From: Escherichia coli
GTDB taxonomy: Bacteria > Pseudomonadota > Gammaproteobacteria > Enterobacterales > Enterobacteriaceae
Reading direction: 5' to 3' (one strand)
DNA length: 64,000 bases
NCBI RefSeq assembly: GCF_044324785.1
Contig: NZ_CP172127.1
This document shows, in pieces, positions 35,128-64,000 of the stretch. Positions within the stretch are counted from its first letter, which is position 1, and every line of letters begins with the position of its first letter. The translations under genes were made by a program, and so were the position numbers. Below the pieces are notes generated by a model. The model saw only the letters and a program-made list of their open reading frames with translations. It had not been told where the DNA came from and did not search any database.

Positions 35128-35189
35128 AGTGTGATACCTCTGAAGACAGAAGATAAAAGTGCAAACAAGCGTGATGTGGTTGTGACGGG

Positions 35190-43167: not shown

Positions 43168-44209
43168 ATCAGATTTCGGGTAAGTCTCCCCCGTAGCGGG
43201 TTGTGTTTTCAGGCAATACGCACGCTTTCAGGCATACCTGCTTTCGTCATTTTGTTCAGCGCTCGTACCAGGGCCATAGCCTCCGCAACCTGACCATCGT
43301 AGTCACGCAGCGTCAGTGAACCCCCGAACAGCTGTTTTACCCGGTACATCGCCGTTTCCGCTATCGAGCGACGGTTGTAATCTGTTGTCCATTTCCACCG
43401 CGCATTACTCCCGGTCATTCGCTGATTAGCCACTGCACGGTTACGGTCTGCATATTCACCGGGCCAGTAACCCGCACCTTTTCGGGGAGGGATAAGCGCG
43501 CTGATTTTCTTACGCCGCAGTTCATCGTGACATAGCCGGGTATCGTAAGCGCCATCGGCGGCGGCTGACCTGATTTTCCGGTGGGTTTGCCGGATTAACC
43601 CGGGGAAGGCCTCTGAGTCCGTAACGTTGTTCAGCGACAGGTCAGCGCAGATGATTTCATGTGTTTTACTGTCAACGGCGAGATGCAGCTTACGCCAGAT
43701 ACGGCGGCGTTCCTGGCCATGCTTTTTGACTTTCCACTCGCCTTCACCGAAGACCTTCAGCCCGGTGGAATCAATTACCAGGTGTGCGATTTCACCCCGG
43801 GTGGGCGTTTTGAAACTGACATTAACCGACTTTGCCCGCCTGCTGACACAGCTGTAATCCGGGCAGCGTAGCGGAACGTTCATCAGAGAAAAAATGGAAT
43901 CAATAAAGCCCTGCGCAGCCCGCAGGGTCAGCCTGAATACGCGTTTAATGACCAGCACAGTAGTGATGGCAAGGTCAGAATAGCGCTGAGGTCTGCCTCG
44001 TGAAGAAGGTGTTGCTGACTCATACCAGGCCTGAATAGCTTCATCATCCAGCCAGAAAGTTATGGAGCCACGGTTGATGAGGGCTTTATTGTAGGTGGGC
44101 CAGTTGGTGATTTTGAACTTTTGCTTTGCCACGGAACGGTCTGCGTTGTCGGGAAGATACGTGATCTGATCCTTCAACTCAGCAAAAGTTCGATTTATTC
44201 AACAAAGCC
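43153..44209 (-). mobile_element. IS903-like insertion sequence (IS5 family), 1057 bp, without target-site duplication
   Basis: 18-bp terminal inverted repeats GGCTTTGTTGAATAAATC at 43153-43170 and, inverted, at 44192-44209. Length equals IS903 as I recall it. The 9-bp flanks differ (gactataac vs gttacccgc). Confidence 0.85.
43209..44132 (-). CDS. IS903 transposase (DDE)
   Basis: GTG start at 44132 gives a 307-aa product (VAKQKFKITNWPTYNKALINRGSITFWLDDEAIQAWY...); the ORF-track frame extends to 44177. Confidence 0.85.
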   Translation of the reverse strand: MAKQKFKITNWPTYNKALINRGSITFWLDDEAIQAWYESATPSSRGRPQRYSDLAITTVLVIKRVFRLTLRAAQGFIDSIFSLMNVPLRCPDYSCVSRRAKSVNVSFKTPTRGEIAHLVIDSTGLKVFGEGEWKVKKHGQERRRIWRKLHLAVDSKTHEIICADLSLNNVTDSEAFPGLIRQTHRKIRSAAADGAYDTRLCHDELRRKKISALIPPRKGAGYWPGEYADRNRAVANQRMTGSNARWKWTTDYNRRSIAETAMYRVKQLFGGSLTLRDYDGQVAEAMALVRALNKMTKAGMPESVRIA

Positions 44210-45339
44210 GTTACCCGCTCTTCAATCTCATGCAATTGATTATGCAATATCGCATTTTCATCCTTTTGCCCGGCTAATGAGTGGGTAAGCGTCTCAACTT
44301 CTTGCTGTAATGCGGAGCTCCTGGCCTGGAAAAACTCAAGTTCCTTCAGAACCCGATCTTTAAGAGAGAATAGGTACTCTTCAGCTGACAGCGTGGTGAT
44401 CCTATGATGGGCGGCGGCGATAAATTCATCATAAAAATCATCACTCTTTGCATCCAGGGCAACAACAAACTCTTTCACTTGCTGATAAAACGGGTGAAAT
44501 GCCGGACCAGAAATCGTGTTTAAATGCCACTCAAGGAACACGACAACATAGTTTTTATAATCTCTGAGACGGTGTTCCATCATCCCCTGCTGACAGATAA
44601 ACGCTTTAAGCGCCACCAATGCTTCAACAGCACAGCGGTGCGACTCTGCTCGCGTGGCGGATAGGGATTCACTACGGTTGATGGTATGAGAAATTAACGT
44701 TTCATTTAAGACCGAAATTCTGTTCGCCATGAGCATAAATGCGCAGACGAAGAAAAGATCGTTGGTCGTCCTGATTTCCTGAAAGCGAAGCTGATGACTA
44801 GTAATAAATTGACGCCTGAGAAGCTTGTCCCATGGCCACCAGACAAAGGTGCGGAAAAAGTCAGAGGGAATATCCTGGGATGAAAAAAACTTGAGATCAG
44901 GTAACAGCTCCTGGCGCACTGACCACGGCATCGGAGCATAAACCTGCAAGGCGGGATCAAAAGACTGGCTGCGACAGATAACGACATCCGCTTGTATATC
45001 GCTAGCACGTGCGTACATGCGCTCCAACATCATGTTATCGACATAATCGTCGTCATCAAGAAAAATAACGTACTCACCGGTAGCAGCATCCAACCCGATG
45101 TTTCTTGAGCCTCCCCCACCAAGATTTGTCGTGTTGTTAATGACTCTAATTCGTGAATCAGTTTCAGCCAGCGCCGAGACAATCTCTAAGGTATTATCGT
45201 CAGAACAATCGTTGACAATAATGATTTCAATATCATTTAATGTTTGCGACAAAACAGTGCTCAATGTGTCGGAAATATATCCCGCCGCATTGTGCACAGG
45301 GATAATAACGGAAACAGCTATACTCTCTTTTTCAGACAT
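44179..45339 (-). CDS. Family-2 glycosyltransferase; C-terminus replaced by IS903-derived codons
   Basis: N-terminal GT-A fold (VIIPVHNAAGYISDTLSTVLSQTLNDIEIIIVNDCSDDNT ... FLDDDD). The last 9 codons and the stop lie inside the IS903 right inverted repeat (IS boundary 44209). Confidence 0.7.
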   Translation of the reverse strand: MSEKESIAVSVIIPVHNAAGYISDTLSTVLSQTLNDIEIIIVNDCSDDNTLEIVSALAETDSRIRVINNTTNLGGGGSRNIGLDAATGEYVIFLDDDDYVDNMMLERMYARASDIQADVVICRSQSFDPALQVYAPMPWSVRQELLPDLKFFSSQDIPSDFFRTFVWWPWDKLLRRQFITSHQLRFQEIRTTNDLFFVCAFMLMANRISVLNETLISHTINRSESLSATRAESHRCAVEALVALKAFICQQGMMEHRLRDYKNYVVVFLEWHLNTISGPAFHPFYQQVKEFVVALDAKSDDFYDEFIAAAHHRITTLSAEEYLFSLKDRVLKELEFFQARSSALQQEVETLTHSLAGQKDENAILHNQLHEIEERVTALLNKSNFC

Positions 45340-45460
45340 GCAATCACCTTGACGCTTAGCTTATAAACGTAATTATATTTATTTATGGGTAGCGTTTAAT
45401 TTGTAGGTTGCCAGTTTATTAAGGATGGGTAAGATGAAAGCGACTGAGCTTCATCAAAAA

Positions 45461-46606
45461 TTACTCTTCAACAACATCACGATATGTTTTTAATGTTTTA
45501 TTAATGATCATCACACTCGAGAATTTATCTTGAATGCGTTTTCTGCCATTGATACCCATTGCGACGCGCGTTTCTGGGTTATCCAACAGGAAACCGAGTT
45601 TCTCCGCTAATTCCTCGACAGATTTACTTTTTACAATCAACCCATTATAGTTATTGATAATTAAGCTATCACAGCCACCAACATCATAAGCGATACAAGC
45701 GCGCCCGACAGAGGAAGCTTCCAGCAAGATACGCGGTACGCCTTCGGCGTAGACCGACGGCAAAGCAACGATATTTGATTCTTCAATTAAATCAAATACA
45801 TTAGAGCAATGACCGAGCCAGTTAATCACGCCTTCGCTTTGCCACTTCTGTATCGTCGCCAGCGGAATTGCGTCTTTATCATTCTCAACTAAAATACCGG
45901 CAACATTCAGCGTAAAGTGAATATTTTTATTACTCAGTATTTTTTTGGCTTCAATCAGGTCACCCAGTCCTTTACTCCACAGCATACGGCTGGCAAAAAG
46001 GACGACCGGAACATCACGCTGCTGCTCCAGAGAGTATTTGTAAATCTCTGGATTAATACCCGCGCCATCAATAACAATAGTCTGTTTGTAATCGATACCA
46101 ACCAGATCGGCAAGTTTAGCTCTGTCTTTATCATGTTCGAACATAAACAAACTGCATTTGTTACTGGCGATATACTTATATGCCATAACAGTAAAACTTC
46201 GCAGCAGCTTAAGACAGGCAGACTCTGCGGAAAATACTCGGCCCAAACCGACAAAACTCAGAATAACAGGACGATGGGTACTTTTAGCCAGAAAACCGCC
46301 GATCAAACAGGGCTTGATGGTAATGCAGTGCAACAAATCTGGATTGATGTTTTGAATAATTTTCCGAGCCTTAGAAAAGGCCCGAAAGAAAATCAAAACG
46401 TTGAATGATTGGGCGACAAGTGGAATGTTATGGCAAACAAAACCTAATGTCCTGAATTTTTCCGCTATTTTATCATCGACAAAATGGCTAATAATGTGAA
46501 TCTCATAACCGGCATCTCGGGCGGCAATTGCACGATCGGTCCAATGCAAATCAAAATACCAATCCGAATTTATGAAATAACACAGTTTTTTCATTGCTAT
46601 GTCCAC
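45461..46606 (-). CDS. wbbO: GT4-family glycosyltransferase, WbbO-like (galactosyltransferase of D-galactan I pathway)
   Basis: 381 aa; GT-B C-terminal signature EGVPRILLEASSVGRACIAYDVGG; position matches the last gene of the Klebsiella wzm-wzt-wbbM-glf-wbbN-wbbO order. Confidence 0.75.
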   Translation of the reverse strand: MDIAMKKLCYFINSDWYFDLHWTDRAIAARDAGYEIHIISHFVDDKIAEKFRTLGFVCHNIPLVAQSFNVLIFFRAFSKARKIIQNINPDLLHCITIKPCLIGGFLAKSTHRPVILSFVGLGRVFSAESACLKLLRSFTVMAYKYIASNKCSLFMFEHDKDRAKLADLVGIDYKQTIVIDGAGINPEIYKYSLEQQRDVPVVLFASRMLWSKGLGDLIEAKKILSNKNIHFTLNVAGILVENDKDAIPLATIQKWQSEGVINWLGHCSNVFDLIEESNIVALPSVYAEGVPRILLEASSVGRACIAYDVGGCDSLIINNYNGLIVKSKSVEELAEKLGFLLDNPETRVAMGINGRKRIQDKFSSVMIINKTLKTYRDVVEE

Positions 46607-48666
<2,060 letters not shown>

Positions 48667-50559
48667 TTAGCCAAGAATCGAACGGCGAACTTTATAATAA
48701 TATTTGATGAGCTTATTTCTTCTTGGCGAACCGACAGGAGCATATTTGTTAACATATGGCATTAAAGCTCTTTTAATCTTTGTCTGCAGTAACACGGTTT
48801 GCTGCAGTTCAGTATGTTGGTTAGGTACTACCGTGGCCACAGGTAACTGGCGATAGTAGATTTCTTTCTCCCATGGCGTACTTAAAACATTCTCAAGAAA
48901 ATCATCATAGAAATCGACTTTCTCAGTATTCCATGGTTTGTTTTCACCCGCATAGTGAATCATTTTTGGATTTCTTCTGGCTTGCAAAAAGCGCATATAG
49001 GTTGAAAACTTGAGATTCGGGAAGAAATCATCGGTATTACCATTACCATGGTACACGTTCCATTCTAATGGTAAGAATTTGACTCGGCCAAAGAAGACTT
49101 TGTTCATGATATCCTGATCTAAGAACCAATACTTTTTGGCTTTCAATGCTGACATCAATTGAGCAAAGGTATTCTCTGTAACCATTTGTTCGACATTAAA
49201 AACAATAATCCCGGCCTGAAAATATTCGTCAGGATTAGTCATTCCTAATGTCTTTTTCAGGTATTGCTCTGCAGGCATAATGCCATCATCTGATTCTGAC
49301 ATGGTACCAAACTTCACAAACCCTTCCATGACGATGTCTTTAACAGCGGCAACCAGGTTAGTGCCGATCTCGACATCCAGAAGTGTCGCCAAATCAGCCT
49401 TCACCACGGTGTCAGAATCGATAAACACAACTTTTTTATACTCGCGGAAAAGTTGCGGGATGAACAAGCGCGCATAGGTCGACGCACTAAAATGTGCACG
49501 GGTATGAACATCACTCATCTCAGTGAATGAATTCACATCAAAAAAGCGCAATGATATGTTGTTATGACCAGCAACTAGCTTGATAAGGCGTTGTTTATTT
49601 AAATGACTGACCTTATTTTCCAGAACAACGATATCATAGTTTCTGCTCGCATCAGAATGGAGAACAATTGAATTGATTAATGCCCCGCCACTTAATGCAT
49701 AGTTATTATCAAAACTAATAACAACCGGTACGCTTTCGTCAAAAACGGGCTTTAATTTACCATTAAATGTTTCAGCAGTAACAAACGTGCGCTGTAGTTC
49801 TTTTATTTTTAGCTGTTTATCTTGTTGACATTTGATGATATAGATATTGAATAAACGCTCAGCAATGTGTCCTATAACTCGTTTTTCTTGAGCGTTGTAG
49901 TTATTCATCGAAATCCGATCTTCAAGATTAGACAAAATAGCAAAAAGCCATTCAGAATAATCCAGGAACATGTCTTTGCGCATAACAAACATGTTCGTAT
50001 AATAACCATCAGTTGCATTATTGAATTGTTGAATCGCAGCTTTATATTGTGGATACAGCTCTTCAACGACATCCAGGGCAGACTGATAGTCTTTAATGTG
50101 TAAAAACTCACCTTTTGCATAATGATCAAGGTTATTCTTACTTCCTGCCGATGTTACCGACCATTTTTTGGGTAACAGCAGATCATATCCATCGACGCAG
50201 GTGCTTATGGATTCATCACTTAATCCAAACTGGCTTTCGTATTCGGCATTGATGAGCGGGTAGTTGACTACCCCCCAGTTATCCTCAGGATGATTTTGTT
50301 GTTCTGCAAAGTTCAAGTGTCTGCGGTAATGCATGAATCCCACATAGTCAGCCAGAGATTCATTCTTCCACACCCAGTAGTGGGCCGTCAGCTCACAATA
50401 GAAGGGGTTTTTAAAGGAAATGTTGTCTCCGCTATCATCCCCTTCACAGCCAATATCATTATAAGTATTAGCCTTCCCGACATGCAGTGGTTTAATAATA
50501 GAGGCATTTAGAAAAGCACTGGGTTTGTGGTGACATGTATAAATTTTGATACTATTCAT
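48667..50559 (-). CDS. wbbM: WbbM-like bifunctional glycosyltransferase (N-terminal DUF4422-like domain + C-terminal GT8 domain)
   Basis: 630 aa; C-terminal GT8-like region (VVISFDNNYA...FIDSDTVV). Size and position match Klebsiella WbbM. Confidence 0.8.
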   Translation of the reverse strand: MNSIKIYTCHHKPSAFLNASIIKPLHVGKANTYNDIGCEGDDSGDNISFKNPFYCELTAHYWVWKNESLADYVGFMHYRRHLNFAEQQNHPEDNWGVVNYPLINAEYESQFGLSDESISTCVDGYDLLLPKKWSVTSAGSKNNLDHYAKGEFLHIKDYQSALDVVEELYPQYKAAIQQFNNATDGYYTNMFVMRKDMFLDYSEWLFAILSNLEDRISMNNYNAQEKRVIGHIAERLFNIYIIKCQQDKQLKIKELQRTFVTAETFNGKLKPVFDESVPVVISFDNNYALSGGALINSIVLHSDASRNYDIVVLENKVSHLNKQRLIKLVAGHNNISLRFFDVNSFTEMSDVHTRAHFSASTYARLFIPQLFREYKKVVFIDSDTVVKADLATLLDVEIGTNLVAAVKDIVMEGFVKFGTMSESDDGIMPAEQYLKKTLGMTNPDEYFQAGIIVFNVEQMVTENTFAQLMSALKAKKYWFLDQDIMNKVFFGRVKFLPLEWNVYHGNGNTDDFFPNLKFSTYMRFLQARRNPKMIHYAGENKPWNTEKVDFYDDFLENVLSTPWEKEIYYRQLPVATVVPNQHTELQQTVLLQTKIKRALMPYVNKYAPVGSPRRNKLIKYYYKVRRSILG

Positions 50560-50573
50560 CTTATTACCAATTA

Positions 50574-51314
50574 TTAAGCCATTGCTTGCTTGTAAAGTTC
50601 AATGATTCTCTCTGCTGAGCCAATTTCGCGGAGTTTATGGTTTTCGATCCAAACAACTCTGTCACAGATTTTTTCAACATCACTCATATTGTGGCTAACG
50701 AATAATATCGTTACACCCTTATTTTTGAAGTCTCGTATTGTTTGTATACATTTGGCCTGGAACGAAATGTCACCGACAGCAAGTACCTCATCGATAATAA
50801 GTATATCGGGTTCTACCTGGCTGATGACAGAGAATCCAAGCTTCGCAAGCATACCACTTGAGTACACGCGAATAGGTTCGTCAATGAAATCACCCAGCTC
50901 GGAGAACTCAATTATCCGATCCATCCGTTGCTGAACCTCTTTGCGGCGTAGCCCAAGCAGGGTCGCATTGAGATAAATATTTTCTCGCCCGGTTAATTCA
51001 GGGTGAAAACCGCCGCCTAGCTCAAGCATTGAGGCAACGCGTCCCTGGGTTGTAACAGTGCCTTTTGTAGGCTTAATGACGCCGGCCACCAGCCCGAGGG
51101 AGGTACTTTTCCCTGCGCCGTTACGACCAATCAGCGCTACGGCCTCGCCTTTACCCACGGTGAAGGTAATGTCTTCGATCGCAAGATATTTACGCCCTTT
51201 TAACAGCTGAAAAGCTCTTTTAGGGTGAAATACGAGATCCTTAATTCCTGAGCCAATATGGTGGTAAAGAGGATACTCTTTCGTAACGTGACTAAAGTTT
51301 ATTACTGGTTCCAT
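50574..51314 (-). CDS. wzt: O-polysaccharide ABC transporter ATP-binding protein Wzt (short form, no carbohydrate-binding extension)
   Basis: 246 aa; Walker A GRNGAGKST, signature YSSGMLAKL, Walker B ILIIDE. Confidence 0.9.
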   Translation of the reverse strand: MEPVINFSHVTKEYPLYHHIGSGIKDLVFHPKRAFQLLKGRKYLAIEDITFTVGKGEAVALIGRNGAGKSTSLGLVAGVIKPTKGTVTTQGRVASMLELGGGFHPELTGRENIYLNATLLGLRRKEVQQRMDRIIEFSELGDFIDEPIRVYSSGMLAKLGFSVISQVEPDILIIDEVLAVGDISFQAKCIQTIRDFKNKGVTILFVSHNMSDVEKICDRVVWIENHKLREIGSAERIIELYKQAMA

Positions 51315-52093
51315 TACAAAATCTCTGCAAATCGATATTTTAATTTATTAAAAATACTCAGGCCCACAATTGTCAGGACTAAACCTGTAATGTAAAGGAT
51401 TGAAATATATTCATAATTTAAGACGCCATCCATGAACAGCTGCCGCCAGCTGAGGATCATGCTTGCCAGAGGATTATAGGTAATAATCCAGCTAAATTTT
51501 TCAGGAATCATATCTGACGCATATAATATCGGCGTGCAATAAAACATGAGCATGATACCAAGGCTGACAAATCGCTCTAAATCCCTGAAGAACAGATTTA
51601 GCGTAGAAAATATGATTGAAATACCAAATGTAAAAATCACCTGACCAAGCGCAATAATTGGTACGCCCCAGAGCCATGAGAGCGATGGACGCATACCATA
51701 CACGAACAGGAATGCAATAATCACAGGAATTGTACACAAGAAATGTACCCCTTCCATCATGACATTACTCAATGGAATAACTGAGCGCGGAAAAACTGTT
51801 TTTTTGATTATTTGCGCATTGGCTATAAACGAAAACAAGGAATTTGTCGCCGAGCTGGCAAACCATTGCCACGGAAATAAACCGGTAATCAAGAAAAGGG
51901 TATAATTCGGGATCTGCACTCGCATAACGAGCTTAAAAATGAAATAATATATCATTGCAAAAAGCAGTGGATTCGCAATTGACCATAAGTAACCAAATAC
52001 GCTGCTTTTATAACGTACCTTTAAATCTTTGTTTGTTATAACAACAAGAAGATCAAACAAATACCCTATATTATACTTCATTTTTATACTCAT
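51314..52093 (-). CDS. wzm: O-polysaccharide ABC transporter permease Wzm
   Basis: 259 aa; six-TM ABC-2-type permease; stop overlaps the wzt start. Confidence 0.9.
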   Translation of the reverse strand: MSIKMKYNIGYLFDLLVVITNKDLKVRYKSSVFGYLWSIANPLLFAMIYYFIFKLVMRVQIPNYTLFLITGLFPWQWFASSATNSLFSFIANAQIIKKTVFPRSVIPLSNVMMEGVHFLCTIPVIIAFLFVYGMRPSLSWLWGVPIIALGQVIFTFGISIIFSTLNLFFRDLERFVSLGIMLMFYCTPILYASDMIPEKFSWIITYNPLASMILSWRQLFMDGVLNYEYISILYITGLVLTIVGLSIFNKLKYRFAEIL

Positions 52094-52390
52094 AAATTAT
52101 TCTACAAAAAATTCCGTACGTAATATGTATCAAACAGAATTATCGATAAGATCTGCTGTGCTCGAGAGACGAACAGCTATTCCCATAAACAAAGACCAAT
52201 TGTAACATCATTTTGCACAAGCAATATGTAAACAATCTTTCCTGCGCATTAGCACTCCGGAATCGGAGATGATCGCTAACCTCAGTAACCGCTGAATGAA
52301 AATGTGATTCTCGTGGAAGATACATAAACCATCCTTTAAGATTGTAAATAAAATGTTAAATCGAACAATGAGTTTATTCTAAAATTCAGA

Positions 52391-52402
52391 CACGCTACCG
52401 CC
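52391..52402 (-). promoter_or_regulatory. ops element (RfaH recruitment site, part of a JUMPstart) in the leader of the wzm operon
   Basis: Plus strand reads cacgctaccgcc; its reverse complement is the exact ops sequence GGCGGTAGCGTG, on the operon strand about 300 bp upstream of wzm. Confidence 0.7.
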
Positions 52403-53051
52403 ATTGGCTATCGCAACCAAAATGCGGACTCCCCTCTCTAAAGTGTCTGTCTTACCCGGTCTTACCGTAACGAAGAGGATACGCTCGTCGTTAGCTCCAC
52501 AAGCATTACCGGCGCAGCATTCATGAAGCCACAAACAGCCTAGTCAGCGTTCGGCAAAAAAGCTAAAAACAAACGGATATCTGTACTCAGCGCCCCTCTC
52601 CGGACTCACATCCATCGCTACACCGCAACAAATGCACCGCTACTTTCCCCAGTTTATGGCATCCTATCCATCAGGACTTTCTCATTTCACCCTTGAAACC
52701 AACAAAAAGCGTCACTCTCGGCAGTATGACTTCAACAGCCATGTAGCTGGGCGCTCCGCATCTCTACATGAGTCAGGCAGAGTATTAAGTTCGCGGGCAG
52801 GCAGCGGCAACACCACCAGGATAACGTACTTCCTCATCCTATCTTGCATAAAAGTGAATTTGACTTTTCTTCAAAAGTGGTCAAATCCGAGCGTCGTAGG
52901 GTACGTTTGCTGCGCATTATCAATAATGCATCCGTAGGACGTGAATTACGCGCGCATTATAGCTCTGGTCTGGAAGAATAAAAATGAAAAAGCATGACCA
53001 ATCCATCCAGCCAAAAAATACTGAAGTGGTCAACAAAAACTGGCCACCGAG

Positions 53052-53455
<404 letters not shown>

Positions 53456-53640
53456 GTAAGCGTCGTCTGAGTACCGTCTGGTCCCGAATCCAGGATCCTG
53501 TAACTTAAGCACCCACTTATTTTGCAGGTGGACACCTCATGCGCACCAAAGAACGACTCCCCCGGAAACGCTATTCTCCTGAATTTAAAATGGAACTGGT
53601 CAGGCTGGCCCTTGAACAAGATGTCACGAACGGTGCAATA

Positions 53641-55366
53641 GTGGTTCTTCCGCAACTTGGGTGGAAGAAAATGGATGAAACTTTCTGGTGAACAAGGATC
53701 TAAGCTGTTTTAAGTTATGGGCAACGCAATGCACTCTCTTAAGACACTTCTACAGTTACCTTGCGGATGGCGATGCAGTCGACAAATTATTAGCTCTGAC
53801 GGTATCACCCTCCATCTCCACGGAAAACGCAAAACAGCACAATGTCCTGAATGCTCTAAGCGTAGCGACTCTGTTCATAGTTCTCGTCGGCGCCGGATAC
53901 AGCATCTACCCTGCTCCGGGCAGACGCTATGGCTTGTATTTTCCGTCCGCCACTGGTACTGCCGTAACCCTGTTTGTTCACGAAAAATTTTTGCCGAGTC
54001 GCTTGCTCCCTTCGCCGGTTCACACCAGCAGTCTTCACAGGCGTTACAAAATTTACAACGTCAACTGGGATTAATAGCCGGAGGTGAGGCTGGAAAACGG
54101 GCTGCAACGGCAGTGGGTCTCCGTTGCAGTGCAGATACTCTTCTTCGCAGGGTTATCAATACCCCGGGGACGAAACAGTCAGGCGCGCCTCATGTCGGTA
54201 TTGATGAGTGGGCGTGGCATCGGGGCCACCGTTACGGTAAGTTAATCGTCAATCTTGATACTCACCGTCCCCTCGTCCTGCTTCCCGGTCGTGATCAGCG
54301 TACGCTGGCGACCTGGTTCAGAAAATATCCGGAAATACAGGTTGTCTCGCGTGATCGCAGTGGAGTCTATGCAACAGCAGCACGTGAAGGTGCACCTCAG
54401 GCCAGACAGGTGGCCGATCGATGGCACCTGCTAAAAAATATTGGCGATGCGCTTGAACGAATGATGTACAGACATATACCTCTGATACGTCTTGTTGCCA
54501 GTGAGTTGTCACTAAAGAAATCACCTGAGCCAGAACTGTCTGTGCCTGCAGTATCGCTCCGTCGTCCGGAACGCCTTAAACAGCAAACCCGCAAAAAACG
54601 GCATCAGCGTTGGACAGAGGTTATGGCCCTGCATAACAAGGGATGTAGTTTCAGGGAAATATCCCGTATTACAGGCCTGTCGCGTGTGACAGTCAGTCGC
54701 TGGGTGCGTTCAGGAACATTCCCTGAAATGTCAACCCGACCTCCAAAGCGAGGGCTTCTGGACCCATGGAGGGAGTGGTTAAAAGAGCAACGAGAAAGCG
54801 GTAATTATAACGCCAGCCGGATATGGCGGGAAATGGTGGCCCGGGGGTTTACAGGCAGTGAAACCATCGTCAGGGATGCTGTTGCCAAATGGCGTAAAGG
54901 CTGGATCCCACCGGTTACTACTGCCGCCAGACTTCCTTCAGTGTCCCGGGTAAGCCGGTGGTTGATGCCCTGGAGAATAATCAGGGGGGAAGAAAATTAT
55001 GCTTCCCGATTTATTAGTCTGATGTGTGAAAAAGAACCGGAGCTGAAAATAGCGCAGCAACTGGTACTCGAGTTCTACCGTATTCTGAAAACCCAAAATA
55101 AATCACAGCTTAGCAGCTGGTTCACTCGAGTCCACGAAAGCGGCTCAGCAGAACTTCGGCGCGTGGCTGCGGGGATGGAAGCTGATGCTGCGGCTATATG
55201 TGAGGCAATCAGCAGTCGCTGGAGTAATGGTGTTGTCGAAGGTCATGTAAATCGCCTGAAGATGTTGAAACGCCAGATGTATGGTCGAGCCGGATTTGAA
55301 CTGCTCAGGCAGAGGGTCATGAGTCCACTGGCATGAAAATCTCCACCCAAGTTGCGGAAGAACCAC
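53641..55366 (+). mobile_element. ISL3-family insertion sequence nested inside the IS66-like orfA
   Basis: 25-bp perfect terminal inverted repeats GTGGTTCTTCCGCAACTTGGGTGGA at 53641-53665 and, inverted, at 55342-55366; encloses a single transposase gene. Confidence 0.75.
53717..55336 (+). CDS. ISL3-family transposase
   Basis: 539 aa; N-terminal zinc-finger-like region (CGWRC...CPEC); ISL3-like architecture. The second Met at 53729 is an alternative start. Confidence 0.8.
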   Translation: MGNAMHSLKTLLQLPCGWRCSRQIISSDGITLHLHGKRKTAQCPECSKRSDSVHSSRRRRIQHLPCSGQTLWLVFSVRHWYCRNPVCSRKIFAESLAPFAGSHQQSSQALQNLQRQLGLIAGGEAGKRAATAVGLRCSADTLLRRVINTPGTKQSGAPHVGIDEWAWHRGHRYGKLIVNLDTHRPLVLLPGRDQRTLATWFRKYPEIQVVSRDRSGVYATAAREGAPQARQVADRWHLLKNIGDALERMMYRHIPLIRLVASELSLKKSPEPELSVPAVSLRRPERLKQQTRKKRHQRWTEVMALHNKGCSFREISRITGLSRVTVSRWVRSGTFPEMSTRPPKRGLLDPWREWLKEQRESGNYNASRIWREMVARGFTGSETIVRDAVAKWRKGWIPPVTTAARLPSVSRVSRWLMPWRIIRGEENYASRFISLMCEKEPELKIAQQLVLEFYRILKTQNKSQLSSWFTRVHESGSAELRRVAAGMEADAAAICEAISSRWSNGVVEGHVNRLKMLKRQMYGRAGFELLRQRVMSPLA

Positions 55367-55467
55367 TTTTCATCCGTCGTTGACACAAGAGGGCAGTATC
55401 GCTGCTCTGGCCCGTCAACATGACGTCAACGATAATCTGCTCTTTAAATGGATAAGGCTCTAGCAAC

Positions 55468-55695
55468 GTGAAGGGCGGGCGGGTCTGTCGACCCCGAAAA
55501 AATGCATCGTCGCTTCCTACCCTGATACCCGTGCAACTTCAGGCGGAGCCTTCTCTCCCGGAATTCGAACCACTATCCTGTTCACCTCCCACTGCCTGCC
55601 ACATAAAATGTCGGGGCGGAGAAATAACGCTGACCTCTCCCTCAGTTGAGCTTATGAGCACTGTCCTGCGCGAACTGATGCGGGGGTCTGTATGA
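55468..55695 (+). pseudogene. IS66-family OrfA C-terminal fragment
   Basis: 75-aa ORF ending ...LMSTVLRELMRGSV, whose stop overlaps the orfB start in the typical IS66 arrangement. Confidence 0.5.
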
Positions 55696-56057
55696 TAAAT
55701 CTTCCCGCAGGCACAAAAATCTGGCTGGTTGCCGGTATCACCGATATGCGCAACGGCTTCAATGGTCTCGCCGCAAAGGTGCAGACAGCGTTGAAAGATG
55801 ACCCGATGTCCGGCCACGTCTTCATCTTCCGGGGCCGCAGCGGCAGTCAGGTCAAACTGCTGTGGTCCACCGGCGACGGACTGTGCCTGCTGACCAAAAG
55901 GCTGGAGCGTGGCCGCTTCGCCTGGCCGTCGACCCGCGATGGCAAAGTGTTCCTGATGCCGGCGCAGCTGGCGATGCTGATGGAAGGTATCGACTGGCGA
56001 CAGCCAAAGCGGTTACTGACGTCCCTGACATGTTGTAGCCCAGGTCTTCTTCGTTGA
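55692..56057 (+). CDS. IS66-family accessory protein TnpB (OrfB)
   Basis: MINLPAGTKIWLVAGITDMRNGFNGLAAKVQTALKDDPMSGHVFIFRGRSGSQVKLLWSTGDGLCLLTKRLERGRFAWP matches the IS66 OrfB family as I recall it. Confidence 0.8.
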   Translation: MINLPAGTKIWLVAGITDMRNGFNGLAAKVQTALKDDPMSGHVFIFRGRSGSQVKLLWSTGDGLCLLTKRLERGRFAWPSTRDGKVFLMPAQLAMLMEGIDWRQPKRLLTSLTCCSPGLLR

Positions 56058-56877
56058 TAAAGTTCACATCCAGAGGATGGATACTTCCTGTAGCCCGTAA
56101 TATCGTCGATTCAATATCCTGCACATTCATCGGGATCACCGATGCAAGAAAAGCCCATTGATCAGAATAAGGCTGGAAATTAATATCAACAAAAACGCTT
56201 CCCCCCGATGCACGCGGTCTTTTTTGCAGAGGTAACGCGATAAGATTACCAAATCCTCCTTTTGGCATAGTATCCTGATTAGGAAATAATCGGTCATAAG
56301 AACTCAATTGCAGCTGTCGGGTCCGGCTGCACGTATAGCTAATAATAGCAGTCCCCAGACGGCGAGCTTCGCGGGCCGAAACTCGTGAAGCAAAAAATAT
56401 CCAGACATGCGCTCCCTGACGTGAGCGGGATATTTCCAGCGCAGCAGGTACACTCAGCTCATCACAGGCTCGCATGAACGCGGATGCATCCTTCTGCCAT
56501 TCAGCTTTATCAAAATCAACAGCCAGAAAATAACAGGAATCATCTTCCAGCAACGGATATAACCCGGCAGTATGCGTGCCTGCCAGATGCTGGTAGATGA
56601 CAAGATCAGATACAGGGAGTAACTGACGGTGCGTACAGTCCCCGCATTTTATCCGGGGTTTACCGCATATTCTCGCCTGCCATTCGTTAGCGCAGGCAGG
56701 AGAGTACCCTGATTTGCCGCTGGTTTTACTTTCCCAACGAAGGGCCCATATATCATCACGCCCACGAAACAACCGACGAAATAATGCAACCTTCTCGTCG
56801 GTGGATAATACGGAAACGCGCTGCACAGGGCTCGGCGGTTTACGTCGCCATTCCAAGTAATGAGACCAGACGGGCAT
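56058..56877 (-). pseudogene. Primase-like protein (archaeo-eukaryotic primase / prim-pol type N-terminal domain), 3'-truncated at the IS66 boundary
   Basis: Motifs LAVDFD (DxD) and RQGAHVWIFF (H-containing motif). The reading frame continues into antisense IS66 orfB sequence (to 55852), so the native C-terminus, where a helicase domain would be expected, is missing. Confidence 0.5.
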
Positions 56878-57080
56878 TTTCTGCCCTCAATGCAGCTAAT
56901 TCATCGCTGTCAGATTTATGAACCATATTCGTTACCTGTATCCGATCCACTGAGGCACCACGGCAGAAATTCGGGTCCCCTACACTGATGACAAAGCGCC
57001 CCGCCCTCTTCTGCCTATTAACTCAAGCACCTCCCAACAACTTACAGAAACTTAATTCTAATACCTAATACAGCTGTAAT

Positions 57081-57644
57081 TCAGTTGTGTCGTGGTCGGC
57101 CCCGGTTACTTTTTTCGGGAAGCCTGCTACGGCCCAGAATAATACCGTGTTCTTTCTGATCCTGTTTAGCCAGGTAGCTGAGGGCGTAACGTAAGTCGTC
57201 TACTGCGGACTTATCACTATAGTGAATCACGTGATCGATACGCACCGGGTATTTATCTTTAGCCCGGCACAGATGAAAATAACCCTCCCCTTCCGTGATC
57301 CGCCTCCAGATATCCCCCAGTTGCCTGGATATCTGATAAGAGTTCTTGTGACGTTGCCCATCCAGATAGCCGATAAAATGAATATGAAGCCCTTTGTCTG
57401 GTGTATATTCCATAACCCAGTAATATCCTGCCAACATCGTCTGGGTTTCGCTAAGTAAACGGTATATTTCCATACACATACTGTGCTTACAGGAATGCCC
57501 GAAACTGGGCGTGTCTTTCCTGTAGGCAAAATCAATTCTGAAAGGTAACAGTTTAGAAAAACGTTGAAACAATCCCTCCATGTGTTCATTCACATCTTTC
57601 AGAATCGCGAAATTCATTTCGTAATTGGGATTGGCATTATACAT
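57081..57644 (-). CDS. Inovirus Gp2-family protein (YfjJ/YagK-like), typical of CP4-57/P4-like elements
   Basis: 187 aa; resembles the YfjJ family recalled from CP4-57. Confidence 0.65.
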   Translation of the reverse strand: MYNANPNYEMNFAILKDVNEHMEGLFQRFSKLLPFRIDFAYRKDTPSFGHSCKHSMCMEIYRLLSETQTMLAGYYWVMEYTPDKGLHIHFIGYLDGQRHKNSYQISRQLGDIWRRITEGEGYFHLCRAKDKYPVRIDHVIHYSDKSAVDDLRYALSYLAKQDQKEHGIILGRSRLPEKSNRGRPRHN

Positions 57645-58775
57645 TTTATAGTCCTTAATTTATAAAACTCACAGGAAGAGGAAATTATGTAAATACTGAG
57701 AGAACATAAACGCCGTAGCACGGCATTAATAAACGAAGTAAACCAGCAGCACAGACACCCTGATAAAACTGTTTTGTATTACCGCATCGCTGTAACGAGG
57801 TAATACTTCAGAATTCAGTGAGGCTCTCTTAAACAGAGGACCAGTAAGAATTACAATGGTAAAAACACACCTCATAGAATTGAGTTTAAGGAAGCACCAT
57901 TCACTCAACCTGACATTCACAAAAGTCAGTACCAGGTGGCCTCAGGTAACATCGCTATTAATATTATCCTGCCATTAAGTAAAAACAGAAACTCTGTGAG
58001 GAAGTCTCACCAATATTTGACCAGTAGCATAAAGAATAACGATATGAGAGATACGCCCACACCAGAGATGATTACCCCATACAAAAAGATAATATTTATT
58101 AATACCACCGCACCTCAATAGACTAATAACACACTAATAGCGTTTTGGTACACACTTAACACTAACTATGCACCAGACACATACTCAGGATTAACATTCC
58201 CAACATTTATGGTACTCTCAAAGAGTATAATTCACCACACAGGTAAACTCTCACACCAGTAGTATGGAGATAATGCTGTACACATACTTACAGAGTAAAG
58301 TGTACAGTTAGCATACAGTGGCGAGCAGACATTACAACATAAAGACATAAGATAGCATAATAAGAACATAACAAAACTCCCACTAATAATACTAATTAAC
58401 CTTAATTCTTTTTTGAACAGGAAATCAACATAGCTCCAGACCTCTTCAGGTCATACACTTTTGTATTGGATGTTCAATGTGTACTTCTGCACAAACAAAA
58501 AAATAAAACCCGCAAAATAAAATATCAGCCCCAAAAATACAGCGTGAAACACCACGTTATGGATATGTTTTCATATCACCAGAAGCATATTTCACACATA
58601 CAATACAGAAACAATTCATCATATAATCAGGGTTACTGTTCACTCCTCTCGGTTATCCGCGAGACGATAAAACATGACACTAATCACAAAAACGAGAGAT
58701 AGTATTTGCGAAATATAAACAACATAAAAATCAATGCGTTGCGATTTTTTATTTTTTCAGACATGCATGCCCCCT

Positions 58776-58811
58776 CTGCTATTGTTGCTAGCCGGCTAGC
58801 AACAATAGCAG
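58776..58811. repeat. Perfect 36-bp palindrome (18-bp arms, no spacer) just downstream of the 607-aa gene
   Basis: ctgctattgttgctagcc|ggctagcaacaatagcag read directly; preceded on the plus strand by tttttatttttt. Confidence 0.7.
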
Positions 58812-58853
58812 GGATATACAAACATCGGATGCCAAAAACACGTTCCGATAATA

Positions 58854-60677
58854 TCATCGAGGATCTGACTGGTTGTTTTTAGTATCATCACCACAAATGA
58901 TGGTTAATGCGTTGTAGATCAGTCTGCGTCTGTTCTTGTTTTCAGCATTATTTCCATACAACATCATGACGTTTTTAATATCATCAACCGGTGATATTAC
59001 ATAATCAACCAATACGCCAAGCTTCTCAATACATTGCAGTAAAGTATATTTGTGTCTGCCCGTAAATAATCCTATCAGGTTTTCTTTACTTTCACGACTG
59101 GATAATATTTTGTTCTCTGTAATTAATTCAGCCAACGTTTCACCATCGTAAACACGTTCTTTATCTATCAGAATATTTATCTTATCTAACGCCCTCTCTA
59201 CATTATCAAGAAGACCTGTAATATACGGAGGCTGAATATCTGACTTTGTACTAATATTTGCAAGCATCGAATTATACATTTTAATGACACGCATCAGAGT
59301 AAAATTATTCGCATCATATTGTATTTCATCTTCATTATACGCAGGATCCGTCACGACCCTTAAGTCCATAAATGCATCCTGATAAGCTTTTACATAATCA
59401 AGTAATTCGAACAGTGAACCATGCTTTATTTTCTCCCTGTTTAATTTGATCTCCAGCGCTATCCTGAGAACTGAAAAAGCGCCGGGAAGATACCCAGAAG
59501 GTAACTCGTATTTTGGGGATTCATCATAAAACCGAAGAGCTTTGTGGAGTTTGTTCCGCCGAATCAGATAAATAAGGACGGCCAGTAACATGTAGCACCT
59601 GGTCACATAACCACGGGCATTCTGCAACTGTTCAAAATAATTAATAATGTTTTCCAGATATACATCATCATAACTTTTCTTATCAGAAAGATTAAACACC
59701 ATATCTTTTAAAGATTCGATATATTCTTGTGATTTATCATCAAGTGACACAATATAACGAGTTAATGCTCCTTTGGGGCCACTCTCAAACTCATGAAACC
59801 GTTCAAGTAATGCTCTTGCATAAGGCGTTGTGTCAAAAATATTAAAATCATAAAGATAGCGTGCAGCGTAGCCATACAACCCATGTACCCAAAGCCCTTC
59901 TCTTATCAGCACTCTGAGATAATATGCAATACTGTCAAGTATCTTTACCTTCCGTTGCATATCAAGCAAAATACTTAATGAATAAAATGCATAATAGAAC
60001 TTGTCAATGTTGTTGAGTATTCTGTCCAGCTCACTCTTATCAAGCTTCTTCTCTCTGTAATCCTTCTTGTATTCATTCTTACAGGCCTTTATATATTGTT
60101 TCATAAGGCTCTTCCTTTTACCGTACCCTTTTCGAATAGTTCCCTGGTATTTTCCCAGCTCATACATTTTTCCGTTTTCCCGAAAATCTTCTCTGTTAAA
60201 TCCCAGTTCAGCAAGATACTCCCGGAGATAACGTTTAACGGCAGCCTCATCGCTTTCTGTACCAGAGTAATCCAGGCAGGGACAATATGATTTTTGCAAA
60301 AAATTATAGATATGATAATAAAACCCTGTTTCATTCTCCGGACGATATGTGTTATATATATCCAGCACAATAAAAACAACTCCAAAGCTTTTCAGAAAAT
60401 AGTTACGGATATATTCGGACTTTAATGTTGAATACACAGGGTAAGAATTCATCATGTAATAAAAATATTCATACCGGGAAAATATAATTCGCCGTTGTTC
60501 CAGACTATACACCCCTTCAGCATCAATAATTTGACTGAGCTCATTATAACGTTGATCCCAGAATCTTTGATGCGCTCCAAAATCAGTACTCTTCCGCTTA
60601 TCTCTCGGACTCTCTCCTTCCTTAAACAACTCAAAAACTGTACAAATATCATACAAAAGATTTGTAAACATGCGCAT
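58854..60677 (-). CDS. Hypothetical protein (607 aa), no recognisable domain; AT-rich orphan gene in a P4/CP4-57-like module
   Basis: Long uninterrupted ORF in a visibly AT-rich block; Lys/Tyr/Asn/Glu-rich; no P-loop or nuclease motif identified by eye; divergently arranged with alpA. Confidence 0.6.
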   Translation of the reverse strand: MRMFTNLLYDICTVFELFKEGESPRDKRKSTDFGAHQRFWDQRYNELSQIIDAEGVYSLEQRRIIFSRYEYFYYMMNSYPVYSTLKSEYIRNYFLKSFGVVFIVLDIYNTYRPENETGFYYHIYNFLQKSYCPCLDYSGTESDEAAVKRYLREYLAELGFNREDFRENGKMYELGKYQGTIRKGYGKRKSLMKQYIKACKNEYKKDYREKKLDKSELDRILNNIDKFYYAFYSLSILLDMQRKVKILDSIAYYLRVLIREGLWVHGLYGYAARYLYDFNIFDTTPYARALLERFHEFESGPKGALTRYIVSLDDKSQEYIESLKDMVFNLSDKKSYDDVYLENIINYFEQLQNARGYVTRCYMLLAVLIYLIRRNKLHKALRFYDESPKYELPSGYLPGAFSVLRIALEIKLNREKIKHGSLFELLDYVKAYQDAFMDLRVVTDPAYNEDEIQYDANNFTLMRVIKMYNSMLANISTKSDIQPPYITGLLDNVERALDKINILIDKERVYDGETLAELITENKILSSRESKENLIGLFTGRHKYTLLQCIEKLGVLVDYVISPVDDIKNVMMLYGNNAENKNRRRLIYNALTIICGDDTKNNQSDPR

Positions 60678-60765
60678 CTGCTCTGATCTCCGGTTGGTTT
60701 CCGTTTTATCACAGGGGACATTCTGGCCTTAACGTAGCAAATTAATGACATAGCCTTCAACTCAC

Positions 60766-61026
60766 ATGGAGAACAATATGTCAACCCAGACCGGACATTT
60801 TTATACCCCCTCACGCATCCTGCGTATGGCTGAACTTACCCGACTCCTTGGTATATCAAGATCGACCATCTACGAAAAAATGAATCCGGCATCAAAATAC
60901 TACGATGCCACCTTTCCCCGGCCTGTCCGGCTTGGGAGTTCGGCTGTAGGCTGGCGGGCATCTGCCATTGATGAGTGGTTAACTTTACATACAACACCAA
61001 CCAGATCCGTAACTAAGGATAAATAA
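60766..61026 (+). CDS. alpA: AlpA-family transcriptional regulator (prophage/island excisionase-like HTH)
   Basis: LRMAELTRLLGISRSTIYEKM...FPRPVRLGSSAVGWRASAIDEW is the AlpA signature; immediately upstream of the DUF3987-like gene. Confidence 0.7.
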   Translation: MENNMSTQTGHFYTPSRILRMAELTRLLGISRSTIYEKMNPASKYYDATFPRPVRLGSSAVGWRASAIDEWLTLHTTPTRSVTKDK

Positions 61027-61041
61027 GGAAAACTGTACGCC

Positions 61042-62607
61042 ATGACAAAATTATCCCCCCCTGAACTTGACATAACTAAACTGCCTGACAGGTGCCAGGC
61101 ATTACTTGATGAAATGCATGAAGAAACGGGAATAAGCCGTGAAATACTGCTGTCTGTTATGCTGACGGTCAAGGCTGTCTCGGTCCAGGATACGCATGAA
61201 GTTGAACTTTCTGGAGGGCAGCGTACCAGTCTTCAGATATATATGTGTCTTTCATCAGCATCAGGCAGTGGAAAAACCTCTGCCTGCGCAAAATTAATCG
61301 CCCCTGTTCATGAAACAGAAGAAGAACTACATCAGGCATATATCGACGATAAAAAAAACTATGATCGCATGATGGAAATGTGGACAACAGATAAAAAAAT
61401 CCTGGAGCGGAGATATAAAAAGGAAATGGAAAGATCCCCGGAAAATGCTGCTGCTGCACGAGCAGCGCTTGAAAAGTGTATAGCAAATAAACCCGTACCT
61501 CCCGTACAACAGGTTCTCATCGTGAATGACGCGACACCAGAAGGGATAGCTTTGAAACTCAGCCAGTCACCTTCTCTTCTGTTGCTGTCTGATGAAGGAG
61601 GAACTATTCTGGATAAGCGTTTCGAACGCAAATCGGCGCTGTACAACACATTATGGAGTGGGCAACCAGTCACCGTAGAACGGGCATCCAGACCCGGGTT
61701 CCGGGTAAAGGATTCCCGTCTCACTATGCTTATACTGACTCAACCGGTAATATTTGATAAGTTTTTTACTCTCACTGGCGACCAGATCCGGGGCAATGGC
61801 TTTCTGGCCCGGGTGCTATTTTGCGAACCCGGAGCAAATAAAATAATGACGACAGAACCGCATACTGCCACTCCTGTTGTAACGCAGCAATGTGCAACCT
61901 GTTTTCATGAGAAAAGTTTTGGCAGTCAGATCAGAGACTCTCTGAGAGCGTCCCGGGAAAGGCGTGCAAAAGGTGAGCAACGCATCCGCATGACATTATC
62001 ACACGCAGCATCCCACGATCTGGAAATCTTTCACGAAGAAAATATGAGTGCTGTCAGGCAGAACCCACGTATGACCACTTTCGAAGACATTATCGTCAGG
62101 AAAAGAGAACAGGCTGTTCGAATAGCCGCACTTCTGGAGCTGGAGAACAATCCACATGGTACAGTAATAACACGAGAAAGTATCAATAGTGCTATTTATC
62201 TCGTTGATTTTTATTTTCAGCATCTTATATCCAAACTGGAATCACTTCGGGAAATATCTCCTGCAGAAAAACTGGATAAATGGCTCAGAGAAAATATCAT
62301 CCGGGTAAAAGGATACGAATATCAAAAAAGCCATATACTACAATATGGTCCATATGCTCTCAGGAATAAATGTGTTCTTGATGAAGCACTTGATATACTT
62401 GCAGAACAGAAAAAAATCGTAATTGATTATTCAATCGGCCAAAAAATCATTTATATCGGTGACGCGATTACACCTTGTGAATTAGCAAATGAGGCAAACA
62501 TCCCGATAATGGAGCGTGGAATGTTTATAGTCTGTTGGGACCATAAGCTGAATAAGTACAGAAATGAAGAACAGACTAAAATATGGAACATAACTACAAA
62601 AAATTAA
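61042..62607 (+). CDS. DUF3987-like protein (YfjI-like), typical partner of alpA in P4/CP4-57-like elements
   Basis: 521 aa; operon position after alpA as in CP4-57 (alpA-yfjI), recalled from memory. Confidence 0.65.
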   Translation: MTKLSPPELDITKLPDRCQALLDEMHEETGISREILLSVMLTVKAVSVQDTHEVELSGGQRTSLQIYMCLSSASGSGKTSACAKLIAPVHETEEELHQAYIDDKKNYDRMMEMWTTDKKILERRYKKEMERSPENAAAARAALEKCIANKPVPPVQQVLIVNDATPEGIALKLSQSPSLLLLSDEGGTILDKRFERKSALYNTLWSGQPVTVERASRPGFRVKDSRLTMLILTQPVIFDKFFTLTGDQIRGNGFLARVLFCEPGANKIMTTEPHTATPVVTQQCATCFHEKSFGSQIRDSLRASRERRAKGEQRIRMTLSHAASHDLEIFHEENMSAVRQNPRMTTFEDIIVRKREQAVRIAALLELENNPHGTVITRESINSAIYLVDFYFQHLISKLESLREISPAEKLDKWLRENIIRVKGYEYQKSHILQYGPYALRNKCVLDEALDILAEQKKIVIDYSIGQKIIYIGDAITPCELANEANIPIMERGMFIVCWDHKLNKYRNEEQTKIWNITTKN

Positions 62608-62830
62608 AGTTCCCGTCTTTTATCATTCAGTTACCAACCTGAATATCTGAAACAATGCCAGACATCGGTTACAAACTGGCATTGTTTTTATCATTCAATT
62701 TATAAACTACAATATTACGTATTATTTTTACATTTATGTCATTGCAAATATCAGACAAACAAGCATTATAACTCAATAAGTATATTTTTCGTGATTACAG
62801 ACGACATCTGCAAATCTGTGAGATGTGATT

Positions 62831-63985
62831 TCATCGCTGGTTTTCCATAATCTGAGACATCACATAATCCGCCCATGCCTGCATCATCGGTATACGCTGA
62901 TCCAGCAGATCAGTCCGGTGATATGCCGCCTCAACCTTATTTTTCAGCGTATGGGCAAGCGCCCTTTCCGCCAAATCCCGCGAATATCCCTGTTCGCTAC
63001 ACCAGTCCCTGAATGTTGAACGAAAACCATGTGCTGTAGCCACTCGTCCGGGTATATCACTGATGGCCTTCTTTTTACGCAGAAAACTCGTCAACACCAT
63101 ATCTGAAAGGATCTGCTGCTTTCTGGGAGAAGGAAACACCAGTTCGTCATGCAGACCACGTATATTTTCCAGAACGTGAATGGCCTGTCGGGATAAAGGA
63201 ACACGATGCTGTATCCTGGCTTTCATTCTTTCTGCGGGTATCGTCCATATCCGCTTATGAAAATCAATTTCAGCCCAGCGCATTCCCCTTGCTTCGCCCG
63301 AGCGGGTTGCTGTCAGTATCACCATTAATAACAGTGCCCGGGTAACATTATAAGGTTCATCTGTATACACACTGGTCGCCACAAAAAGCGGTAACTGCCT
63401 CCAGGGCATTGCCGGCTGGTGTTCATCACGTCCTCTTGATTGCTGTGGAAGCAAATGATCAACCACATCAACAGGATTCGCCACACAAAAACCATGCGCC
63501 CAGCCCCACTGCATAACAACATGAATGCGCTGTTTAACCCGGCTTGCCGTTTCTGACAAGGTTAACCAGACTGGACGCAGTGTTTCTGCCACGTCCGCAG
63601 CCGTAATCGAATCCAGCGTTTTTGCTCCCAGTTGAGGAAACGCGTAATTCTCAAGCGTCGATAACCACTGCCTTACATGCTTTGGATTTTCCCATCCAGG
63701 AGACAGTTCTGCATGTACACGCCTGGCTGCATCGGCAAATGTTGGGATAACAACTTTTTCAGCTTCAGCCTTTTTAATCTCCAGAGGATCATCACCTGCA
63801 GCAAGTTGCTCTCGCATTATCCGGGCAGTACGTGCAGCTTCAGCAATACTGACCTCAGGATAAGTTCCCAATCCAGCATTACGCCTTTTTTGTGTCACCG
63901 GACTTACATAACGAAAAACCCATTTACCCCTCCCCTTTACTGAAGAAGGATGAAGAGTCAGTCCTGTAATTCCCCCATGGGGCAA
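62831..63985 (-). CDS. int: Tyrosine recombinase / P4-type integrase (N-terminus may extend beyond the window)
   Basis: N-terminal arm-binding region (GGITGLTLHPSSVKGRGKWVFRY), AYPEVS-like motif (GTYPEVS) and C-terminal catalytic region (HGFRSTFRDW ... AYHRTDLLDQR). The ORF-track start is a TTG and the frame is still open at position 64000. Confidence 0.85.
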   Translation of the reverse strand: MPHGGITGLTLHPSSVKGRGKWVFRYVSPVTQKRRNAGLGTYPEVSIAEAARTARIMREQLAAGDDPLEIKKAEAEKVVIPTFADAARRVHAELSPGWENPKHVRQWLSTLENYAFPQLGAKTLDSITAADVAETLRPVWLTLSETASRVKQRIHVVMQWGWAHGFCVANPVDVVDHLLPQQSRGRDEHQPAMPWRQLPLFVATSVYTDEPYNVTRALLLMVILTATRSGEARGMRWAEIDFHKRIWTIPAERMKARIQHRVPLSRQAIHVLENIRGLHDELVFPSPRKQQILSDMVLTSFLRKKKAISDIPGRVATAHGFRSTFRDWCSEQGYSRDLAERALAHTLKNKVEAAYHRTDLLDQRIPMMQAWADYVMSQIMENQR

Positions 63986-64000
63986 TGGTTTGTCATCAGG

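Follow-up and report, generated by a model that had tools for sequence, protein, structure and literature searches.

Identification of a probable non-functional remnant of iee, the IS-excision enhancer gene of SpLE1-like elements, in an Escherichia coli island

In this study, we identify a gene in the window (the whole 64,000-nucleotide stretch of Escherichia coli DNA that was analysed) as a non-functional remnant of iee (ECs1305/Z1568), the gene for the IS-excision enhancer (IEE) of SpLE1-like integrative elements, an assignment to which we give a probability of about 90%. The remnant lies on the minus strand at 56039..56926 and, according to alignment with the intact genes of strain M70 and O157:H7, Pfam and the PGAP annotation, consists of codons 1-24, a frameshift and then the equivalent of IEE residues ~30-300, with the whole AEP (Z1568-like / AEP-TOTE) domain retained. 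The gene is an iee allele with two lesions, a short deletion near its 5' end and a 3' truncation at a joint with an IS66-family element, and it is on record only in this truncated state. In part this is ordinary and already known, as the gene family has been characterised and the locus is flagged as a pseudogene in RefSeq; what is added here is that the 'TOTE AEP' label stands for iee, the exact anatomy of the two lesions, and a reading of the joint as an internal, putatively homology-assisted deletion. The RefSeq label names only a 'TOTE conflict system AEP domain' pseudogene, and what it covers appears to be a dead iee allele.

The IEE of SpLE1 is attributed to Kusumoto et al. 2011, as cited in the later papers, and iee is carried by SpLE1 and SpLE1-like integrative elements (PMC9397093; bioRxiv 10.1101/2023.06.07.543989). 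Calvo et al. 2023 (PMC9943667) describe IEE of O157:H7 as a protein of 786 aa in which residues 1-290 form a Z1568-like AEP domain and residues 291-786 a helicase-like domain of the SF2 type. According to that paper and to bioRxiv 10.1101/2023.06.07.543989, IEE acts with an active transposase to promote the excision of elements of the IS3, IS1 and IS30 families, and deletions next to them are generated as well; copy-out-paste-in ISs are removed in the presence of the transposase, and the donor DNA is rejoined through microhomologies. PMC9943667 presents the AEP domain as a Mn2+-dependent error-prone polymerase and the C-terminal domain as a DNA-dependent ATPase that, in purified IEE, shows no unwinding activity. 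It further states that joining of 3' overhangs with at least 4 bp of homology (microhomology-mediated end joining, MMEJ) requires both domains, and that the engineered AEP-Dom 1-288 (stop at codon 289) polymerises and fills gaps and fails in synapsis and strand displacement.

The minus-strand open reading frame at 56877..55852, which encodes 341 aa according to the ORF list and its translation, matched Pfam PF22548 (AEP-TOTE) with E=5.5e-100 (334 bits, cut-off 27), the match covering profile positions 1-229 of 230. The sequence-only reading had proposed an AEP-type, primase-like gene here and suggested a profile search as a check, and this search bore it out. The frame was also matched by PF01896 (DNA_primase_S, DNA primase small subunit) at 2.1e-08 and by a PADLOC PrimPol model, labelled cas-associated, at 3.9e-128; 6,402 homologues were obtained in the database search, and full-length orthologues are present in hundreds of E. 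coli genomes. Intact homologues, which that reading had wanted as a measure of the loss, were found in strain M70 (788 aa, 95.4% nucleotide identity to the window copy) and in O157:H7 strain 8368 (786 aa, 93.7%). In both alleles AEP-TOTE covers 49-277, ResIII/DEAD 423-565 and Helicase_C 639-738, and set against them the window copy lacks codons ~301-786. In the O157:H7 homologue Y128, D142, D144, S171, Q175, G176, H178, D216, K451 and R735 all stand at the positions published for IEE, and the gene adjoins the urease genes of an SpLE1-type island; on sequence grounds the retrieved 786-aa protein is IEE, because residue positions, length and urease-side location all agree with the published protein. 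The window protein shares ~92% amino acid identity with it over residues 30-300 (249/271, counted from the difference list). Orthology and synteny with iee of SpLE1-like elements were both found for the window copy: it has in common with the O157:H7 SpLE1 gene the AEP family, the catalytic residues, the upstream Gp2-like gene, the spacer between the two, the type of element and the integrase. It differs from the O157:H7 gene in lacking ~301-786, in a 14-bp frameshifting deletion at codon 25, in substitutions at conserved positions and in being a pseudogene.

The catalytic core (56293..56517, minus strand), mapped onto the published IEE residues, has kept all its motifs. Motif A (hDhD) is the DFD at 56517-56509, with D121-F-D123 corresponding to IEE D142/D144; motif B (sxH) has H157 (56409-56407), which is IEE H178; motif C (hD) has D195 (56295-56293), which is IEE D216; and the tyrosine is retained as Y107, which is IEE Y128. 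The DxD and histidine motifs noticed in the unaided reading are the true catalytic residues, as the four positions D/D/H/D are invariant in 36/36 homologues and preserved in the window copy. On the other hand, three changes specific to the window, E145K (beside catalytic D144), G163S and P278S, fall where at least 34 of 36 homologues agree and are putative signs of decay. The lineage-specific dN/dS was 0.35, a value that is uninformative since it rests on 17 changes (9 non-synonymous, 8 synonymous), too few to show relaxed selection. It is no higher than on the branch of the intact M70 allele, and therefore sequence decay alone is no demonstration of lost constraint.

The first lesion lies near the 5' end. 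Alignment with the intact M70 and O157:H7 genes placed the native start at 56926, and in the three-way DNA alignment (columns 239-252) 14 bp, AAGCTCATGGGATT, are missing from the window between 56853 and 56854 (minus strand), after CDS nucleotide 73 / codon 24. Three-frame translation showed that the native frame stops soon after the deletion, at 56842-56840, leaving a 28-aa peptide. The 341-aa frame opens instead at an internal, natively out-of-frame ATG (56875..56877, minus strand) with GAGGG six nucleotides upstream, which is in the IEE frame only because of the 14-bp deletion; its first 8 residues (MPVWSHYL) are foreign to IEE. Inspection of the three-way alignment found no microhomology at the 14-bp deletion, and a scan upstream for promoters and terminators found sites no commoner than in shuffled sequence. 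PGAP/RefSeq annotates the pseudogene at 56926..56038 as 'TOTE conflict system archaeo-eukaryotic primase domain-containing protein; frameshifted; incomplete; missing C-terminus'. The extent 56058-56877 assigned to the gene from the letters alone has to be corrected at both ends, to 56926 for the native start and 56039 for the end of iee homology, and the 5' frameshift had escaped notice.

The second lesion is the loss of the 3' part. Homology to iee stops at 56039, about codon 300, so that 486 of the 786 residues are gone, including the entire SF2 domain with motif I K451 and arginine finger R735. The earlier proposal that a C-terminal helicase was lost holds for this extent, while the lost part is of SF2 type (ResIII/Helicase_C) and not a replicative helicase of D5/SF3 type. 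Directly adjoining is the right piece of a decayed IS66-family element (55380..56038, plus strand), comprising the 3' part of tnpA and tnpB (NCBIfam IS66_TnpB, 3.6e-34) with 97.6% identity to the MEI3O-23 copy and 90% to the MRSN352231 copy. Alignment with intact IS66 and intact iee sequences puts the joint at 56038..56039, between iee codon ~300 and the tnpB stop codon; the matches to the MEI3O-23 and MRSN352231 copies both end exactly at that stop codon, and the element in the window has neither tnpC nor the right inverted repeat. The plus-strand ORF 55692-56057 is IS66 TnpB (PF05717, 1e-37), which confirms the proposal that the primase-like frame runs into antisense IS66 orfB. The tnpB stop itself has been abolished by the loss of 1 nt shortly before it, and the frameshifted tnpB reads 19 nucleotides into antisense iee, through positions 56039-56057, which are iee sequence; because of this extension the boundary had been drawn at 56058. 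Conversely, the last 61 residues of the 341-aa frame (55852..56038, minus strand) are an artefactual tail, an antisense translation of tnpB.

How the two genes came to be joined is suggested by the joint itself. It falls within an imperfectly homologous patch, TCCCTGACCATGTTGTAGC versus TCCCTTCCCATGGCGTA-C, and beside it the retained IS66 sequence matches the deleted iee sequence at 14/20 positions with one gap, a match reached by 0.03% of random breakpoint pairs (p ~3e-4), the reference sequences being relatives and no true progenitors. The joint is best read as an illegitimate, homology-assisted (microhomology-type) deletion and not as an IS insertion, because it is placed at the tnpB stop inside IS66, with no IS end, and on the homology patch. 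Truncation by IS66, as originally proposed, is correct in so far as the gene is cut at IS66 sequence, and needs revision in that the cut would be a deletion joint inside the element with no IS inserting. The layout in O157 is likewise convergent, with an IS66-family element downstream (iee, then ISEc8 tnpC-tnpB-tnpA on the opposite strand). In the window the deletion would have taken iee from codon ~301 onward together with tnpC and the right end of the convergent element. By analogy with O157 the lost segment may have been about 3.7 kb; its size is not measurable directly because no intact copy of the allele occurs among the complete E. coli genomes.

It is tempting, though in our view unlikely, to ascribe the deletion to the IEE/transposase reaction itself, as a 'self-inflicted' loss. 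A copy-out-paste-in IS lying between iee and the IS66 element would have been excised with flanking deletions on both sides, and the ends would then have been rejoined at the imperfect homology patch at 56038|56039; relics of IS3 and ISL3 elements do lie alongside the joint. If true, the host's enzyme for IS removal would have been destroyed, with the loss fixed across the whole lineage. It is mildly ironic, in any case, to find the gene of an IS-excision enhancer dead amid the relics of ISs.

The region to the left of the joint, 53052-56038, is a nest of such relics. The left piece of the same IS66 element (53455..53621, plus strand), with its left end GTAAGCGTC... and the 5' part of tnpA, shares 98.8% identity with the copy at L004:3344-3510, and an IS3-family relic lies beside its left end. 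The IS66 tnpA is split by an ISL3-family element (53622..55379, plus strand; Pfam DDE_Tnp_ISL3, 6.6e-35) that is complete within the nest, with 44-nt inverted repeats and a transposase at 53717-55336; IS66 sequence resumes on either side of it with ~10 bp overlap.

The distribution of the allele was surveyed in a database of 5,426 complete E. coli genomes. A 2.1-kb query from the window had matches of 100% identity in E. coli chromosomes, that of SMS-3-5 among them. In at least 45 of the 5,426 genomes, SMS-3-5 included, one place covers at least 80% of this query together with the junction. Among the matches listed, the same tnpB joint was present in 44/44 copies at 99.9% identity or more, the band at 99% identity or more held 51 records, and the nearest intact allele was 95.4% identical; no intact copy of the window allele was found among the 5,426 complete genomes. 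All records of this allele are of a pseudogene, passed down within one strain group whose carriers came from poultry, pigs, humans and water. At least some similarity to the AEP part was found in 1,758/5,426 genomes, in line with the presence of iee in over 30% of E. coli assemblies given in PMC9943667.

Window positions 43153-64000 are 100% identical to SMS-3-5. The preceding stretch, 32000-43152, matched SMS-3-5 and 11 other genomes in two pieces spanning ~33-35 kb for a 24.5-kb query, and the window strain therefore lacks ~9 kb present in those listed genomes; this extra ~9 kb is IS-rich in SMS-3-5.

We infer that the remnant is inactive in IS excision, since the C-terminal domain is required in vitro both for end synapsis and for MMEJ, and since in O121:H19 the iee-dependent phenotype is abolished by IS insertions in iee (PMC9397093). 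Being frameshifted and without the helicase domain, the window copy would be unable to enhance IS excision, and the locus is best classed as a pseudogene of the IEE / Z1568-like AEP-SF2 family and no functional member of it. The iee alleles of STEC O121:H19 (PMC9397093) are likewise cases of natural, IS-associated inactivation; they differ in being simple IS insertions into iee, whereas the window has a truncated IS and an internal deletion joint. Strains of the carrier lineage are therefore most likely without IEE-driven IS excision, unless a second element is present, and loss of IEE could influence the accumulation of ISs in carrier strains.

At most, translation from the internal ATG could conceivably yield an AEP fragment without the helicase, and the remnant may not be 'completely inert', because AEP-Dom 1-288 is active in vitro and the AEP domain of the window is complete. 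Expression from ATG 56877 would yield an AEP polymerase without helicase and with 61 junk C-terminal residues, whose residual or altered activity might lie in error-prone gap filling or in interference with full-length IEE of another element. The catalytic residues are intact, a GAGGG motif precedes the ATG, 58 database members have a protein call for precisely this 341-aa ORF, and a few remnant-carrying genomes hold a second iee-like place. The engineered AEP-Dom, which polymerises and fills gaps efficiently in vitro (Calvo et al. 2023, PMC9943667) and is an active Mn2+-dependent polymerase, ends at 288, close to ~300 in the window. Compared with it, however, the remnant lacks the N-terminal 29 residues, ends in the 61-residue antisense-IS66 tail and carries E145K beside the active site, with G163S and P278S at further conserved positions. 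No promoter-like site above chance was found upstream, MMEJ and synapsis need the C-terminal domain (PMC9943667), and that the carriers are 100% conserved is a matter of recent shared ancestry and not of selection. We consider an active product quite improbable, and the non-functional remnant is preferred.

Going by the Pfam and PGAP names, the gene would instead belong to a TOTE conflict system or encode a CRISPR-associated PrimPol, and would serve in defence against phages with no part in IS control. The match to the PADLOC cas-associated model points the same way, and the nearest solved AEP structures by sequence are those of CRISPR-associated PrimPol (CAPP; PDB 7nqd/7nqf, 6.7e-08). Yet the NCBIfam CRISPR PrimPol_Msp model (NF040561) gave 89.4 bits against a cut-off of 200, no cas or other partner genes adjoin the gene in the window, M70 or O157, and the sole experimental function in the orthologue group is IS excision. 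No definition of the 'TOTE' conflict system was found in the literature searched, and we regard a defence role as very improbable compared with an iee remnant.

Many mobile genetic elements use AEP PrimPols as their replicases, and we know of no origin or replication role for IEE. It had been proposed that the gene belonged to the replication module of a satellite-like island, as a primase-helicase replicase, and that its truncation ended autonomous replication. An AEP-family enzyme is indeed carried here by an integrative element that also has an integrase and an AlpA-like regulator, there are weak PHROG 'primase' matches at 1.2e-09, and many replicases of mobile elements are AEP PrimPols (PMC11724360). 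Primase-helicases of the pRN1 ORF904 and P4 alpha type (AEP PrimPol with SF3/D5) resemble IEE in that an AEP-fold polymerase is fused to an NTPase on a mobile element, but the NTPase of IEE is SF2, and in the PDB search its top matches were XPB, RAD25 and RadD and not D5/SF3. The intact homologues carry ResIII, DEAD and Helicase_C and no SF3 (D5/P4-type) helicase. PMC9943667 reports the SF2 domain to be without DNA unwinding in vitro and describes IEE as a polymerase, with no de novo priming reported in the sections consulted. As an iee allele the gene belongs with an experimentally defined and different role in IS excision and MMEJ, and the island keeps an intact DUF3987 protein of 521 aa that matches a phage 'DNA helicase' family (2.4e-40), together with the AlpA-like regulator and the integrase, which runs past the window end. 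Nothing shows that IEE drives replication of the element, the claim that autonomous replication was lost is unsupported, and the gene is extremely unlikely to have been a replicase. The case suggests that for an AEP domain on an island the partner domain be checked before a replication module is called. An antisense or chance artefact, the outcome that had been named as a refutation along with lack of primase similarity, can be dismissed for all but the last 61 codons, which alone are antisense IS66, in view of the profile match of E=5.5e-100, the 6,402 homologues and the intact orthologues in hundreds of E. coli genomes.

The island that holds the iee remnant is located at the serW tRNA-Ser gene, and its integrase has 94.8% nucleotide identity to that of the O157 element. 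Upstream of iee the constant neighbour in the window, M70 and O157:H7 is a YagK/YfjJ ('inovirus-type Gp2') gene (57081..57644, minus strand), separated from iee by a spacer of 154 bp (~155 bp; 56927..57080, minus strand) common to the three. This spacer is 99-100% identical among the three alleles, whose own coding regions differ by 5-7% and whose flanking coding regions differ by 5-13%. RNA folding of the spacer gave no signal (z = -0.39), and an Rfam search of 52000-64000 gave no match. Between the Gp2-like gene and the next long gene, 57645-58853 (~1.2 kb) has no long ORF and no annotated feature, and part of it (to 58428) is ~87-89% conserved in the M70 and O157 islands.

That next gene is an ORF of 607 aa (58854-60677, minus strand), for which Pfam, NCBIfam, PADLOC and PHROG gave no match; the O157 island has a hypothetical protein of similar size at the equivalent place. 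Compared with O157 SpLE1 (L003:5363-10616), the block 58854-62607, consisting of the ~605-aa hypothetical protein, the AlpA-like HTH and DUF3987, runs the other way round in its place between the Gp2-like gene and the integrase, and the only DNA similarity to O157 in this block is ~74% over the HTH gene, so the module may have been either inverted or replaced relative to O157 SpLE1.

In the lower part of the island, ~43000-52100 (L001:25620-33522) holds an ABC-transporter-type polysaccharide cluster (permease, RfbB-like ATPase, glf and several glycosyltransferases) as IS-flanked cargo inside the serW island. We rejected the polysaccharide genes as the breakpoint of a chromosomal inversion, since they lie inside this island, between Ag43/type I RM and the IS cluster. 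The equivalent of the lower window part in SMS-3-5 (L007:33375-45214) is the tRNA-proximal island end with a CP4-44-like module (Ag43 adhesin, YeeP-like GTPase, CbtA/YeeU toxin-antitoxin and an antirestriction protein), where the M subunit of a type I RM system abuts IS1. The integrase is at the island end far from the intact tRNA-Ser gene, adjoining clpA, and the O157 locus, where the integrase adjoins ycdU, is consistent with that arrangement.

A distant IEE homologue was also found in Azotobacter chroococcum (CP010415; L006:8001-9808), with an AEP domain 71% identical. There too the gene is broken up, with AEP and DEAD/ResIII in separate ORFs that overlap, and IS transposase genes come after it. 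Its 465-aa product was considered as a natural stand-alone AEP and rejected, as the copy is frameshifted and IS-cut; short homologue lengths in general were likewise rejected as a separate split architecture, being fragments. The Azotobacter case shows that iee-like genes undergo IS-associated decay outside E. coli as well.
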